This document shows, in pieces, positions 3,278-22,517 of a stretch of DNA of 32,000 nucleotides. The notes below the pieces were generated by a model. That model was not told where the DNA came from. It was given only the letters and a program-made list of their open reading frames with translations, and ran no database searches. A program made the position numbers and the translations under genes. The stretch lies in the NCBI GenBank assembly GCA_021735045.1, contig JAIPHU010000005.1, positions 33,811-65,810 on the forward strand. Direction: 5' to 3'. Origin of the DNA: Candidatus Omnitrophota bacterium. GTDB taxonomy: Bacteria; Omnitrophota; Gorgyraeia; Duberdicusellales; 4484-171. Every line of letters starts with the position of its first letter. The first letter of the stretch is position 1.

Positions 3278-4228
3278 TCATTTGGATTTTGATAAACCGC
3301 CTAACTCTTTAAGTACCTGTTTAGCCTTCTGATAGTAAGGGGTGTCTGGATATTTATTGATTATTTTTTCTAAGTAAATCTTTGCACTTTGAGGCTTTTT
3401 TTGTTTTTTATAGAATAAAGCAATCTCAAATACTTTCTTAGCTTCTTTACTGCGAAGTTTAGCCAACTGGCCCTTTGCTTTTTTAGATATCTTTGCCTCA
3501 GGATGTTCTTTTATAAACTCATCCAGCCTTTGGGTCGCTTTCTTAAGATAAGATGCATCATAGTCAGCCCCCGGAAAAGCTTGAGCTGTCGCCAAAGCCA
3601 GCTGATATTTTGCCGGAGTCGCCCAGCGACTATCTGGGTAATCATCGATAACTTTCTGAAAAGCTTCCCGTGCTTCTTTAAAACGACTTAGTTGAAGAAA
3701 AATTACTCCTAGTTTATATTGAGCTCGAGAAGCATACTCCGAATAAGGAGTTTCTTCAACAATACTTTGAAATATTTGAACCGAAGGATGATTAACAAAG
3801 TCATATATTGAAATACCCAGCAACTTTTTATTTTCTCGATTTAAAAAGTATTCTCCAATATTATATTCTCTTTCTACAATCTCATTAATTCGTTTGCTAT
3901 TAGGATAACTCTGGATTACTTTTTTAAAAGCAAGATAAGCTTCATATGGTTTATCAAGTTCTTCTAAGGTCCTACCTAAATAATACTGAGCTTCCGGACC
4001 CTCTTTAGAGTCAGGATAATTAACAAGAAGCTTTTTAAACTCTTTATAAGCCCTTTTAAACTCTCCTTTCTTAAAATACTTAATGGCTTCTTTATATTGA
4101 AGGGTTGGAGTAGCAAGGGCAGAATATTCAGGATTCTTCCATTTTTGAGTCTTCGGTGACCAAATCCAAAATGGATAAGCGTCAAAGCAAATACAAGTAA
4201 ATATTACCAAAAGAATCAATCTAATCAT
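3278..4228 (-). CDS. bamD: TPR-repeat outer-membrane assembly factor, BamD/YfiO-like
   Basis: 316 aa with an N-terminal hydrophobic signal. It has repeated TPR-like units with the YPDS/YPNS..A..A.Y.LG pattern typical of BamD/YbgF-type proteins, and it neighbours lptE. Confidence 0.55.
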   Translation of the reverse strand: MIRLILLVIFTCICFDAYPFWIWSPKTQKWKNPEYSALATPTLQYKEAIKYFKKGEFKRAYKEFKKLLVNYPDSKEGPEAQYYLGRTLEELDKPYEAYLAFKKVIQSYPNSKRINEIVEREYNIGEYFLNRENKKLLGISIYDFVNHPSVQIFQSIVEETPYSEYASRAQYKLGVIFLQLSRFKEAREAFQKVIDDYPDSRWATPAKYQLALATAQAFPGADYDASYLKKATQRLDEFIKEHPEAKISKKAKGQLAKLRSKEAKKVFEIALFYKKQKKPQSAKIYLEKIINKYPDTPYYQKAKQVLKELGGLSKSK

Positions 4229-10311: not shown

Positions 10312-10384
10312 TGGAGCCGGGGGGATTTGAACCCCCGACCTCAACACTGCCAGTGTTGCGTGCTCCCAACTGCACCACGGCCCC
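10312..10384 (-). tRNA. tRNA-Ala (anticodon GGC)
   Basis: The reverse complement GGGGCCGTGGTGCAGTTGGGAGCACGCAACACTGGCAGTGTTGAGGTCGGGGGTTCAAATCCCCCCGGCTCCA folds as a cloverleaf. It has the G3:U70 Ala identity pair and anticodon loop CUGGCAG. No CCA is encoded. Confidence 0.93.
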
Positions 10385-10551
10385 GTTGAAAATGCAATTA
10401 TATAGCGAATACCTTAATTTTCAACGGCACTAAGCCAAATTCCTTGGCGAAGTGCCTTAGTAACCTAAATAAGATACTTCGTCATTTCATTCCTCAGTAT
10501 CAATTCGATTAGAACTTTTTCTTCGAAAAAGCTAAATCTCATTGAATATTA
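10385..10551 (-). repeat. Conserved structured leader module, copy 1 (unclassified; putative 5' leader RNA of tRNA-Ala)
   Basis: Aligns colinearly with 19225-19388. Long blocks are identical, and the differences are confined to hairpin stems and loops. See findings. Confidence 0.85.
10397..10424 (-). promoter_or_regulatory. Proximal promoter (P2) of tRNA-Ala, nested in an 11-bp inverted repeat
   Basis: Minus strand: TTGAAA (10424-10419), 16-nt spacer, TATAAT (10402-10397). The tRNA 5' end lies about 12 nt further on. Confidence 0.6.
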
Positions 10552-10574
10552 TCATCTCCCTAAGAAATTGTCAA
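10546..10574 (-). promoter_or_regulatory. Distal promoter (P1) of leader module copy 1
   Basis: Minus strand: TTGACA (10574-10569), 17-nt spacer, TGaTAATAT with the -10 at 10551-10546. The same register is seen in copy 2. Confidence 0.55.
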
Positions 10575-10603
10575 TTGACAAAGATAAATAGCATTGTTAT
10601 ATT
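10575..10603 (+). promoter_or_regulatory. Promoter of tRNA-Leu
   Basis: TTGACA (10575-10580), 17-nt spacer, TATATT (10598-10603). The -35 is half of the palindrome TTGTCAATTGACAA, shared with the divergent P1. Confidence 0.6.
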
Positions 10604-19082: not shown

Positions 19083-19148
19083 ACTACCTCCTCCTTTTAT
19101 TTCTGTGTAGCCCCACTTGCCTTTTGCCTTGTATTGGGCGAAGCAGAA

Positions 19149-19224
19149 TCGGGAGAGCGGGATTCGAACCCGCGACCCCTTGCACCCCATGCAAGTGCGC
19201 TAAGCCAAACTGCGCCACCTCCCG
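19149..19224 (-). tRNA. tRNA-Pro (anticodon GGG)
   Basis: The reverse complement CGGGAGGTGGCGCAGTTTGGCTTAGCGCACTTGCATGGGGTGCAAGGGGTCGCGGGTTCGAATCCCGCTCTCCCGA folds as a cloverleaf. It has C1-G72, as in bacterial tRNA-Pro, and anticodon loop AUGGGGU. No CCA is encoded. Confidence 0.9.
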
Positions 19225-19388
19225 TTGAAAATGCAATTATATAGGGTTATTCTTTCATTTTCAACGGCACTGAACCGACTTCTTCGGCGAAGTGCCTAAA
19301 CACCTAAATGAGATACTTCGTCATTTCATTCCTCAGTATTAATTCGACTAATCCCGGCGTTCCGCCGGGAAAGTCTCATTGAATTCTA
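19225..19388 (-). repeat. Conserved structured leader module, copy 2 (unclassified; putative 5' leader RNA of tRNA-Pro)
   Basis: Colinear with 10385-10551, with the same order of hairpins, mini-ORF and nested promoter. See findings. Confidence 0.85.
19236..19264 (-). promoter_or_regulatory. Proximal promoter (P2) of tRNA-Pro, nested in an 11-bp inverted repeat
   Basis: Minus strand: TTGAAA (19264-19259), 17-nt spacer, TATAAT (19241-19236). Confidence 0.6.
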
Positions 19389-19411
19389 TCATGCTTTATA
19401 AGGGCTATCAA
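19383..19411 (-). promoter_or_regulatory. Distal promoter (P1) of leader module copy 2
   Basis: Minus strand: TTGATA (19411-19406), 17-nt spacer, TGaTAGAAT with the -10 at 19388-19383. The -35 starts 2 nt after the upstream gene's stop. Confidence 0.5.
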
Positions 19412-19412
19412 G

Positions 19413-19883
19413 TTAAATCGCCTTAGCTGTAAAAGAAAATTGCTTAAGCAACTTACCTTGTGTGTAAATTTTTATTTGATATTGGCCTAAAGGGTCCCCT
19501 TTGCTTAACCCCCATACATTGTAAATAATCCCATCTGCTAAATTAGATGATCTTTTAGTGATTGCTTTCTTTCCGTTTCTACTTATTTTTGTTGATTTGG
19601 TAACTAGTAATTTTTTAGGCTTCTCAGGAAAAACAACAACTTCTTCCCAGGATATATCTTTGTCTATCTCCTCGGTTACAATAATCCAGCCAAAACCAAG
19701 ATCATCTTTTAAGGTGATTATTTCTGTCTCTTTAATTTTAGGAATATCGCCTCGATAACCAACTACTAAACCAGATTTTGCTCCCAAAACCTTTACCTGA
19801 TAACCGTTATTAACAGCATATAACCCTAGGCCTAGCAAAATAACAACTGTTATAGTTACTATCATCGGCTTCTTTGATTTCAT
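19413..19883 (-). CDS. Hypothetical membrane-anchored/exported protein (possibly DUF3859-like beta-sandwich)
   Basis: 156 aa with an N-terminal TM/signal (MIVTITVVILLGLGLY). The C-terminal pattern LGFGW...FPEKP...G.Y.IKIY..GKLL..FSF recalls DUF3859 proteins. That assignment is from memory only. Confidence 0.55.
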   Translation of the reverse strand: MKSKKPMIVTITVVILLGLGLYAVNNGYQVKVLGAKSGLVVGYRGDIPKIKETEIITLKDDLGFGWIIVTEEIDKDISWEEVVVFPEKPKKLLVTKSTKISRNGKKAITKRSSNLADGIIYNVWGLSKGDPLGQYQIKIYTQGKLLKQFSFTAKAI

Positions 19884-21213: not shown

Positions 21214-22055
21214 AATTTTTTAATAGCCTGGGGCAAATAGTTAATTAAATCAGAAGCTACTACACAACTTTGAGTTTTTTCTTGAGCGGCTAAATCTCCG
21301 GCTAAGCCATGAAGATGCACCCCTAACTTTGTCGCTTCATAACTATTAATACCTTGAGCGATCAAGCCAGCTATCATCCCACTCAATACATCACCGGTTC
21401 CTGCAGTAGCCATAGCTGGATTACCAGTATCATTTTCAAAAACCATCTTCCCATTAGTCACTAGAGTTCTGTGCCCTTTAAGAGCAAGGTTAAGATTATA
21501 TCTAAGAGCAAAGTTTTTCGCAAGTTCTTTTCTGTTTTCTTTAATTTGCCTAATTTTTTTCTTTACCAGTCGAGAAAACTCTCCTAGATGAGGAGTTAAT
21601 ACAATGTTCTGATTATTATTTTTCTTTAACACTTTTAAACTTAAAGAAAGAATATTAAGGCCATCAGCATCTATGACCAAAGGTTTATCCACTTTTTTAA
21701 TTATTTTAATTACTAATTTTTGCGTAGCAGGATGCAATCCAGCTCCTGGCCCTAAAACTAACACGCTAACTTTATCTAAACTTCTCTCTATTGTTTTAAA
21801 GGCTTTAGCCGATAGATGGCCTTTCTTATCCGCCAAAGGAATACTCATTTCCTCGGTTAACTTTATTTCAAATATCGAATGCAAGCTCTCAGCTACTGCT
21901 ACTTTTACCAAACCAGCCCCAATACGTAATGCGGCCTGGGCGCAAAGACAAACTGCTCCGGTTAACCCGGGAGAGCCTCCGACTACAAGAACTTGCCCAT
22001 AACTTCCCTTATGGGTTTCAGGTTTTCTTTTGAGCAACTGCATAAGCGACTGCAT
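21204..22055 (-). CDS. nnrD: ADP-dependent NAD(P)H-hydrate dehydratase (YjeF C-terminal type, no epimerase domain)
   Basis: 283 aa with HKGSYGQVLVVGGS near the N-terminus and the GTGDVLSG motif. Confidence 0.85.
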   Translation of the reverse strand: MQSLMQLLKRKPETHKGSYGQVLVVGGSPGLTGAVCLCAQAALRIGAGLVKVAVAESLHSIFEIKLTEEMSIPLADKKGHLSAKAFKTIERSLDKVSVLVLGPGAGLHPATQKLVIKIIKKVDKPLVIDADGLNILSLSLKVLKKNNNQNIVLTPHLGEFSRLVKKKIRQIKENRKELAKNFALRYNLNLALKGHRTLVTNGKMVFENDTGNPAMATAGTGDVLSGMIAGLIAQGINSYEATKLGVHLHGLAGDLAAQEKTQSCVVASDLINYLPQAIKKLPV

Positions 22056-22117
22056 AATCTTTAATGAGACTGTAATTTTTCAAGCTTAAAATAAAGAAAA
22101 ATTACTTAGTCGAACTA

Positions 22118-22145: not shown

Positions 22146-22517
22146 TTATTTAGGTAATCCCTTTTTTTGAACTTTTTGTGCCACTGCACAAGCGACTGCA
22201 TAATCTTCAATATGTGTTATCGAAAGAATCAAATCAGCTTTTGTATCTTTTTTAAAGCTGCAATAAGGTGCTCCATTGGTTCTATTTAATATAATGATAT
22301 CCCGAAAACTTAAGGGTATGCTTTTTGAAATTGCTTTTATCACTGCTTCCTTAGCTGCAAATCTAGCCGCTAGCCTTTGATAATACATCTTACCTTGAGA
22401 AATCCCTTTTACTTCTTCTGGGTTAAATATTCTTTCGACAAAACTACTGCCCCATTTTTTAATGGCACCCCTAAACTTATCTATCTTGACCATATCTATA
22501 CCAATACCTAAAATCAT
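22146..22517 (-). CDS. acpS: Holo-[acyl-carrier-protein] synthase
   Basis: 123 aa. MILGIGIDMVKIDKF...RFAAKEA..KA is the typical AcpS sequence. Confidence 0.9.
   Translation of the reverse strand: MILGIGIDMVKIDKFRGAIKKWGSSFVERIFNPEEVKGISQGKMYYQRLAARFAAKEAVIKAISKSIPLSFRDIIILNRTNGAPYCSFKKDTKADLILSITHIEDYAVACAVAQKVQKKGLPK

Follow-up and report, generated by a model that had tools for sequence, protein, structure and literature searches.

The window analysed here is a stretch of 32,000 nucleotides (nt) from a Candidatus Omnitrophota bacterium (assembly GCA_021735045.1, contig JAIPHU010000005.1, positions 33,811-65,810, forward strand) in which six transfer RNA (tRNA) genes are found. Two of these genes, tRNA-Ala(GGC) and tRNA-Pro(GGG), are directly preceded on their 5' sides by the two copies of one module, at 10385-10546 (copy 1) and 19224-19383 (copy 2), on the minus strand. 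The similar sequence before each of the two tRNAs extends over about 165 nt and the module itself over about 160 bp of non-coding DNA; BLAST aligns the copies at 85% identity over 127-128 nt, and a 26-mer common to both is found at just these two places of the window and in none of 100 shuffles. A preliminary description had seen in the module a minus-sense structured RNA. After comparing its sequence with that of relatives we lean, with modest confidence, towards the view that both copies represent a mosaic, promoter-carrying hairpin cassette, which lies between the native promoter of the tRNA (P1) and the tRNA, in the orientation of the tRNA, and would be transcribed as the leader of the precursor tRNA (pre-tRNA). 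The features of the two loci are the following.

19149-19224, minus strand: tRNA-Pro(GGG), found by ARAGORN and Rfam, the gene served by copy 2
19224-19265, minus strand: promoter hairpin, with the 9-bp inverted repeat GUUGAAAAU (19257-19265) and AUUUUCAAC (19224-19232) enclosing P2
19259-19264 (-35 box TTGAAA) and 19236-19241 (-10 box TATAAT), minus strand: P2 of copy 2, spacer 17, 11/12 sigma-70 match
19266-19296, minus strand: hairpin 2, with outer stem GGCACU/AGUGCC, inner stem GCCGA/UCGGU and loop AGAAG
19297-19311, minus strand: linker UCAUUUAGGUGUUUA, predicted to be single-stranded and unpaired in the RNAalifold consensus
19312-19340, minus strand: core hairpin (GA unit 2), with stem AUAC/GUAU and 19-nt loop UGAGGAAUGAAAUGACGAA
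19341-19380, minus strand: hairpin 1 (GA unit 1), predicted by RNAfold and RNAalifold
19383-19411, minus strand: P1, the native tRNA-Pro promoter, with TTGATA, 17 nt, TAGAAT and TG upstream of the -10 box, scoring 10/12 in the promoter scan
10312-10384, minus strand: tRNA-Ala(GGC), the gene downstream of copy 1
10385-10574, minus strand: copy 1 with its P1, from alignment, BLAST, promoter scan and folds, in the same layout as copy 2 (P1 10546-10574; hairpin 1 10502-10543; core hairpin 10473-10501; hairpin 2 10426-10456; promoter hairpin and P2 10385-10425)

The cassette is thus composed of two GA hairpins (stem, UGAG...CGAA, apex), a lineage-specific hairpin 2, and a near-consensus sigma-70 promoter within a 9-bp inverted repeat, the 3' arm of which reaches positions -1 to +2 of the tRNA. 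P1 starts directly after the stop codon of a PM0630-family gene, and the same P1 is found in two relatives that lack the module (L118 and L132; L-numbers label the DNA stretches compared, L004-L116 being 113 stretches from a genome scan). In hairpin 1 the base helix AAU-GA-GACU...AGUC-GA-AUU, in which AAUGAGAC pairs with GUCGAAUU, contains tandem G.A pairs and carries a variable apex that is nearly gone in L125, L128 and L129. The loop of the core hairpin can itself be drawn as a succession of pairs (U-A, G.A, A.G, G-C, G.A, A.G, A-U, U-A) with a GAA triloop, and the core contains, at 19316-19335 in copy 2 and at 10477-10496 in copy 1, a 20-mer (TGAGGAATGAAATGACGAAG) that recurs in many phyla.

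The sequence adjoining the tRNA had been described as part of the RNA, and this assignment did not hold: the block is, as far as its sequence can be read, a second promoter (P2) with 17-nt spacing, whose predicted transcript would precede the tRNA by no more than 4-6 nt. The -35 and -10 boxes of P2 are kept in all nine aligned sequences (the start site being predicted from sequence), and the final C of the promoter-hairpin repeat is C1 of tRNA-Pro. The remainder of the module would be transcribed only from P1 or by read-through. In agreement with the preliminary description, no terminator follows the gene ending at 19413 in the window; relatives have the hairpin CCACCUCGGAGGUGG there. We also observed, comparing 19384-19440 with the relatives, that the PM0630-family gene of the window reaches P1 without the hairpin CCACCTCGGAGGTGG, which is kept between stop codon and P1 in L118, L125 and L128, so that read-through from the gene into the module is plausible only in the lineage of the window.

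Other readings of these parts were tried and rejected. Hairpins 1 and 2 have no U tract and hence do not qualify as intrinsic terminators, nor was any terminator-like site found on the minus strand in the two regions. The hammerhead reading of CUGAGGA...CGAAG misses stem II and has the wrong topology, since its two flanks form a helix together, and no ribozyme model matches at E<=10. A mini-open reading frame with a Shine-Dalgarno sequence in the core loop (AUG ACG AAG UAU CUY AUU UAG, MTKYLI) was considered as a conserved peptide and set aside; it occurs in both copies of the window and in L093, is longer in L117 and different in L081, and is missing where the core is another GA variant (L125, L127). 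Rfam searches of the window and 18 further loci at gathering thresholds returned only tRNA and transfer-messenger RNA (tmRNA), and over 19100-19500 at E<=10 nothing besides tRNA rose above noise, with no tRNA model matching inside the module.

Pairing, covariation and strand

Covariation in the four hairpins was examined in five full-length copies, for which RNAalifold predicted the four hairpins unaided; two alignments were trimmed by hand. In these copies 97.6% of the cells are paired and 18 of the 42 pairs have changed on both sides, which none of 500 shuffles reaches, and slid controls of the same alignment are 30-45% paired. The differences that it had listed between the two copies of the window were also recovered: in minus sense the apex of hairpin 1 reads CCCGGCG-GAA-CGCCGGG (19353-19369) in copy 2 versus CUUUUUC-GAA-GAAAAAG (10515-10531) in copy 1, all seven pairs being different with the same triloop and position, and in hairpin 2 (19266-19296 versus 10426-10456) the outer stem is identical and the inner stem, GCCGA/UCGGU versus GCCAA/UUGGC, shows one compensated pair and one G.U.

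Among the homologues, 8 of the 15 pairs of hairpin 1 have changed on both sides, and the stem of the core covaries as well (AUAC/GUAU, AUCC/GGAU, AUAU/GUAU, GAUUUC/GAAAUC). Hairpin 2 and the promoter hairpin could be compared in nine sequences, in two of which nested insertions were excised by hand, and here pairing amounts to 99.4% with two-sided changes in 8 of 20 pairs. Hairpin 2 alone, with 11 pairs, is 100% paired in the nine sequences and has 6/11 pairs changed on both sides, its outer stem appearing as GGCACU/AGUGCC, GGCGCU/AGCGCC or GGCAUC/GAUGCC and its inner stem as GCCAA/UUGGC, GCUUA/UAAGC, GCUGA/UCAGC or GUCGA/UCGAC. The repeat of the promoter hairpin reads GC..GC in three tRNA-Gly loci and shows an A/U swap in L117 and a G.U in L121; where its 3' arm covers positions +1/+2 of tRNA-Gly, the 5' arm has changed from GU to GC, so that the pairing is kept. 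P2 with its hairpin is 98% identical to that of L125 over 47 nt, versus about 83% for the genome background. We conclude from these alignments that the four hairpins are maintained by compensatory change, and the earlier claim that the substitutions behave as RNA-type covariation is upheld, with the many compensatory pairs of the homologues added to it.

Fold z-scores are -4.0 and -4.5 on the minus strand and -4.8 and -5.6 on the plus strand; both are more stable than shuffled sequence by comparable margins, and stability alone is therefore uninformative on the strand. Read in the sense of the tRNA, hairpin 2 and the promoter hairpin contain 5 G.U/U.G cells and no A.C cell, and a hand count over all helices gives about 8 wobbles versus 1 A.C. 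The wobble pairs, few and drawn from related copies, support the tRNA strand, as had been argued for the G.U pair of hairpin 2, and each copy is oriented as its downstream gene. Such G.U evidence would be equally compatible with an RNA and with a single-stranded DNA intermediate that has this strand.

The preliminary description had also proposed a long-range helix between AAUGAGA (19380-19374) and UCUCAUU (19313-19307), most of the 3' arm of which lies in the linker. Its arms are indeed present and 97% paired, but no pair has changed on both sides, and the helix competes for its 5' nucleotides with the local helix AAUGAGAC/GUCGAAUU preferred by RNAalifold. We hold this candidate to be unsupported.

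Occupancy of tRNA loci and exchange of parts

A scan of species-representative genomes with the central 20-mer yielded the 113 stretches, of which only L081 and L093, both from Omnitrophota, contain the whole module, and a metagenome scan with the pattern GAATT-N5-20-mer, which was too specific, gave one match (L117). Through homologues of a neighbouring protein of 156 amino acids we reached the syntenic loci of seven related Omnitrophota, whose DNA is 77-83% identical to that of the window, and a covariance model of hairpin 2 and P2 run over 38 loci found no copy beyond its training set. A second genome with two copies is GCA_021735105.1 (contigs JAIPHS01...), in L093 and L126. Two short Logan contigs of the same species (L002 and L003) both stop within the module, one at the core hairpin and one after its first 50 nt; a repeat with many copies, on which assemblies break, would behave in this way.

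Occupancy of the same tRNA loci differs among these relatives. At tRNA-Pro, L118 and L132 have no module and read ...TAAAATTC^TCGGGAGG, the tRNA following directly after the same P1; in L128, L129 and L131 a version of 33 nt (AATGAG...GACAA) occupies precisely this junction; the length is about 155 nt in the window, in L121 and in L125; and L127 carries the module twice in tandem. The full module at tRNA-Ala is found in the window only, L118 retains the first ~25 nt, and L121, L125 and L129 have none of it. The conserved presence before an orthologous gene that is expected of a cis-regulatory leader is hence not seen at tRNA-Pro or at tRNA-Ala. From the minus-sense structured RNA first described, then, the paired helices stand, but its standing as a conserved RNA gene or leader does not, the module being present, absent, shortened or duplicated at the same tRNA. 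With MITEs it shares small size, the lack of coding capacity, several copies per genome and presence or absence among relatives.

The composition of the module varies too. Hairpin 2 and P2 occur alone between tRNA-Tyr and tRNA-Gly(TCC) in L129 and L131, and in L081 a P2-like block comes after hairpin 1 and the core, with a protein gene next. The L117 module lies behind a sequence that repeats nt 1-17 of its downstream tRNA-Gly exactly. An extra GA hairpin is nested in the 3' internal loop of hairpin 2 in L125 and L127a, and the core is replaced by other members of its family, UGAACGAAGUGAA in L125 and GAAGCGAAGCGA in L127. The left junction always falls after TTC, in both copies of the window 2 nt past the -10 box, and the right junction falls at position -1, +1 or +2 of the tRNA; the cassette begins with AATGAG... 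and ends with ...TTTTCAA, and only its P2 part has the 9-bp inverted repeat. On these comparisons of loci, the cassette is gained, lost, shortened, duplicated and recombined among close Omnitrophota relatives.

A family of GA hairpins in many phyla

The conserved core is not confined to the module but is part of a multi-phylum hairpin family linked to mobile DNA. The 20-mer is identical in 113 genome stretches (116 hits) from 15 or more phyla, the lineages including Clostridia, Synergistota, Bacteroidota, Ignavibacteria, Chloroflexota, several lineages of the candidate phyla radiation (CPR), Planctomycetota, Elusimicrobia, Alphaproteobacteria and Omnitrophota as well as two archaea. The 4-5 nt flanking it are complementary and covary (AUUC/GAAU, AUCC/GGAU, ACCC/GGGU, GCAC/GUGC, AUAC/GUAU), and a closing stem of at least 4 contiguous pairs is present in 83 of the 116 hits, versus 38 (maximum 47) with shuffled partners. 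In 64 of the 116 hits an inverted copy of the left end lies at most 220 nt away, in the form GTCATTCTGAG..CGAAGAATCTC ... GAGATTCTTCG..CTCAGAATGAC, which makes these hits REPIN/MITE-like. A few hits (L004, L012) are plain gene starts, since the loop reads as a Shine-Dalgarno sequence followed by AUG. Hairpin 1 of the module shares the UGAG...CGAA design with the core hairpin. Viral contigs gave 0 matches to the 20-mer. No description of the family was found in Rfam or in the literature by sequence-string and topic searches, which is not proof of absence; literature text matches were 0 for the 16-17-mers and primer noise only for the 11-mers.

In some loci the inverted units bracket a small open reading frame (ORF) of the GIY-YIG family (PF01541), all on the minus strand (L041 2000-2709, L042 7350-7950, L096 2784-3323). 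In L075 (4400-5100, minus strand) the 20-mer provides the ribosome-binding site and start codon of a GIY-YIG ORF beside a tRNA/tmRNA-like 3' end, and in L089 (900-3461) four GIY-YIG ORFs are interleaved with tRNAs. This link is drawn from a handful of loci in other phyla, with none among the Omnitrophota loci examined, and an NCBIfam search of the GIY-YIG proteins gave no family-level match.

In about 14 of the 113 stretches a tRNA is found no farther than 150 nt from the hairpin, whose final G is G1 of the tRNA in L060 and L096. The Omnitrophota relatives L121 and L132 have REPIN-like copies close to the tRNA-Pro promoter, on its upstream side. A number of separate observations concern the same neighbourhood. 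In CPR loci (L043 2300-2640, minus strand; L080 2876-3230, plus strand; L107 4050-4274, minus strand; L040; L048) a GA hairpin lies 37-141 nt downstream of a tRNA. In the first three a copy of the tRNA 3' end (3' strand of the T stem and 3' strand of the acceptor) comes after the hairpin, sometimes in tandem arrays, and in L040 and L048 a conserved CCUUCYUCCCUYCGGUCRUCAGGGCCUUCGGCACUGA comes before it. L089 (3258-3399) has a GA hairpin, then a truncated 5' half of tRNA-Gly(GCC), then the complete tRNA-Gly(GCC), a partial tRNA duplication that resembles the one of 17 nt in L117.

The GA hairpin is like REP and REPIN elements in being a short imperfect palindrome, usually in two inverted copies with a short spacer, present many times per genome and bracketing a small nuclease gene in some loci. 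REP and REPIN elements are reportedly mobilised by RAYT transposases; REPs are species-specific, have a GTAG head and are partnered by a Y1 (HUH) transposase. The GA hairpin departs from them in that 20 nt of its loop do not vary among 15 or more phyla, its head is GTCA... and the bracketed gene encodes a GIY-YIG nuclease. A Y1 gene as partner was not seen in the loci examined, for which no profile search for Y1 transposases was made. The populations formed by REPINs have been treated in the literature (PMC8049555).

Taking these results together, we put forward as a tentative proposal that the GA hairpin (UGAGGAAUGAAAUGACGAA between stem arms, with its shorter relatives) may be the terminal repeat of an apparently undescribed mobile family, made up of small GIY-YIG cassettes and of far commoner gene-less REPIN-like derivatives, that would extend across bacterial phyla into archaea, prefer tRNA/tmRNA boundaries and leave partial tRNA duplications behind. 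The Omnitrophota module might then be a derivative with a captured promoter supplying minor tRNAs (Pro-GGG, Ala-GGC, Gly-CCC). This wider lead is perhaps the weightier one, as a 20-nt loop identical in 15 or more phyla may mark an unrecognised family of mobile elements, and the GIY-YIG link may hint at a role for the very common small GIY-YIG proteins.

Mobile cassette or regulatory leader

If the module is a promoter-carrying cassette, it would spread as DNA, through transposition, nuclease-triggered repair or recombination between the upstream regions of tRNAs, and would be tolerated or favoured because P2 restores transcription of the tRNA with its short leader of 4-6 nt. Transcripts from P1 or from upstream read-through would carry the whole folded leader of about 160 nt, to be removed by RNase P, and firing of P2 would bypass this long leader. 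The hairpins would be kept because a single-stranded form in the sense of the tRNA, either the RNA leader or a DNA intermediate, needs them, with propagation, insulation and stability as their possible roles. Such an element would be a structured small repeat that rewires the expression of stable-RNA genes, wedging itself between a tRNA and its promoter and compensating with a promoter of its own. It would also call for caution in RNA discovery, since strong covariation and G.U asymmetry could then come from mobile hairpin cassettes too.

Elements of partly similar nature are known. Like the cassette, the Correia repeat-enclosed elements of Neisseria and promoter-bearing MITEs are non-coding repeats of about 100-160 bp just upstream of genes. 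Their sigma-70-type promoters drive the gene next to them, their own sequence is co-transcribed and folds as RNA, and they are present or absent according to strain; a Correia element has terminal inverted repeats of 26 bp, duplicates a TA target, contains an IHF site and forms a long hairpin that RNase III processes (PMC2649163; PMC10969869). The cassette differs in having four separate hairpins, no terminal repeat of the whole element, no clear duplication and a location at the 5' boundary of tRNAs. The succession of two sigma-70 promoters before a stable-RNA gene recalls the tandem P1/P2 promoters of the rRNA and tRNA operons (rrn) of E. coli, where the long leader from the distal promoter is removed by processing. 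Unlike in rrn, the proximal promoter and the intervening leader of the cassette form an insertion missing in close relatives, and the promoter lies inside a hairpin touching position +1 of the tRNA. A near-identical upstream region before tRNA-Ala, tRNA-Pro, tRNA-Gly(CCC), tRNA-Gly(TCC) and a nitroreductase-like gene is also reminiscent of mobile promoters (PMC3575422). Mobile promoters, or promoter reuse, are defined by sequence identity alone (PMC3575422), whereas the cassette has a defined hairpin architecture with covariation.

Several observations weigh against a mobile cassette. No terminal inverted repeat spans its whole length, and no clear target duplication was found, TTC/TTCAA being present at both junctions and the empty site AATTC^TCGGG not reproducing a clean duplication. 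The right junction is not clean either, with a T missing at tRNA-Pro and the native leader replaced at tRNA-Ala, and no nuclease or transposase gene is present in any of the Omnitrophota loci examined. The homologues number about ten, come from one narrow clade and are partly non-independent. The extended -10 box of the module-less relatives (TGGTAAAAT, L118 10517-10526; TGATAAAAT, L132 ~3926-3935) ends just 3 nt from C1 of tRNA-Pro, a distance too short for a normal start site, so that the apparently empty sites may be deletions that crippled the tRNA promoter. Finally, the strong covariation of hairpin 2 and the adaptation of the inverted repeat to positions +1/+2 of the tRNA in tRNA-Gly loci would also fit an RNA function beneficial to the host.

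Because of this strong covariation and of a last hairpin that tracks the 5' end of the tRNA, a regulatory or small-RNA role remains a serious rival, possible in our judgement although hardly probable. The module would be in this case a functional structured RNA, either a cis-regulatory leader of about 160 nt or a small RNA processed from P1 or read-through transcripts, that controls the processing, stability or output of the pre-tRNA; the last hairpin could, for example, sequester the RNase P site. The two-sided changes in 18/42 pairs with 97.6% of cells paired, the wobbles favouring the tRNA strand, the constant orientation with the downstream gene, the change from GU..AC to GC..GC where the 3' arm covers +1/+2 of tRNA-Gly, and the 98% identity of P2 and its hairpin between genomes about 83% identical overall all agree with such a role. 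They have to be set against a module that among close relatives varies, at one and the same tRNA, between presence, absence and a shortened form and is tandem in L127, whose apexes and whole hairpins are swapped or nested, whose core is a hairpin common to mobile DNA in many phyla, and which has no Rfam match; moreover, a strong internal promoter would bypass any control based on the leader.

It seems unlikely that the module is the relic of a tandem tRNA duplication. Its 5' half would then be a decayed tRNA-Gly(CCC), the D arm surviving as TTCAATGAGAC, the anticodon arm as hairpin 1 and the T loop as GUCGAAUU, and hairpin 2 with P2 would go back to the spacer and promoter that once preceded the following tRNA. 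The exact copy of nt 1-17 of the downstream tRNA-Gly before the L117 module is suggestive of this origin, as is a second P2-like block in L093 that is fused to the module at TTCA, as from a deletion of GCGGGCGGGGTTCA between two TTCA repeats. When the 5' part of the module is aligned locally with tRNA-Gly(CCC), the match reaches z=4.3 in L093 and z=3.3 in copy 2, but is not significant for L117, L081, L127b or copy 1 versus the L117 tRNA, so that 2/6 modules are significant; no tRNA model scores there even at E<=10, and the left end can equally be read as the 5' half of a UGAG...CGAA GA unit. Such an origin would leave unexplained why the module is also found at tRNA-Pro and tRNA-Ala and ahead of a protein gene.

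Palindrome-associated elements (PATEs) derived from IS200/IS605 resemble the cassette in their subterminal hairpins, in being strand-specific, in inserting behind a short motif and in the lack of an obvious duplication. We nevertheless give very little credence to an element of this type, whose end hairpins would be recognised in single-stranded DNA and which would insert 3' of TTC without duplication, or to an orphan guide-RNA scaffold, in which a transcript leaving the right end would use the 5' sequence of the tRNA as guide. The left junction always after TTC and the element end CAA, the hairpins at both ends, the apparently precise presence and absence in L118 versus L128 and the strand-specific wobbles are what such an element would display. 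However, no TnpA, TnpB or IscB gene was found in the loci examined, where no link to a Y1 transposase was seen; no Rfam family matches in the region even at E<=10; the internal promoter at the right end is near-consensus and no guide scaffold; and the GA units are tied to GIY-YIG genes and not to Y1 transposases. Least tenable is a double-stranded regulatory region, in which the palindromes would be operators for dimeric regulators of the tRNA promoters with no single-stranded form being relevant: the 9-bp inverted repeat does flank the P2 -35 box and start region and the fold z-scores are alike on both strands, but a protein site would conserve sequence and not complementarity, whereas the stems change freely with pairing kept (7/7 hairpin 1 pairs differing between copies, 6/11 two-sided in hairpin 2) and the wobble asymmetry favours one strand.

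Some minor observations were made elsewhere in the window and its relatives. At 10546-10603 the promoters of tRNA-Ala (minus strand) and tRNA-Leu (plus strand) are divergent, with -35 boxes overlapping in the palindrome TTGTCAATTGACAA, an arrangement kept in all relatives; in L125 (18892-19240) this divergent pair is inverted relative to the window and L118, and extra sequence with the GC-rich hairpin CCCCGCCTACGCGGTGGGG lies between the genes. The tRNA-Thr, tRNA-Tyr and tRNA-Gly genes are tightly packed in the window, and ACAGA/CACAG-rich insertions (e.g. CACAGATTACACAGAAC) are found before or between them in L121 (8448-8843), L128 (8624-8758) and L129 (8300-8527). A 38-nt direct repeat, 89% identical and 146 nt apart (22028-22065 and 22174-22211), lies at the junction of an ACPS-type gene and an NAD(P)H-hydrate dehydratase gene, which in relatives overlap by 38 nt instead, and looks like a local tandem duplication.

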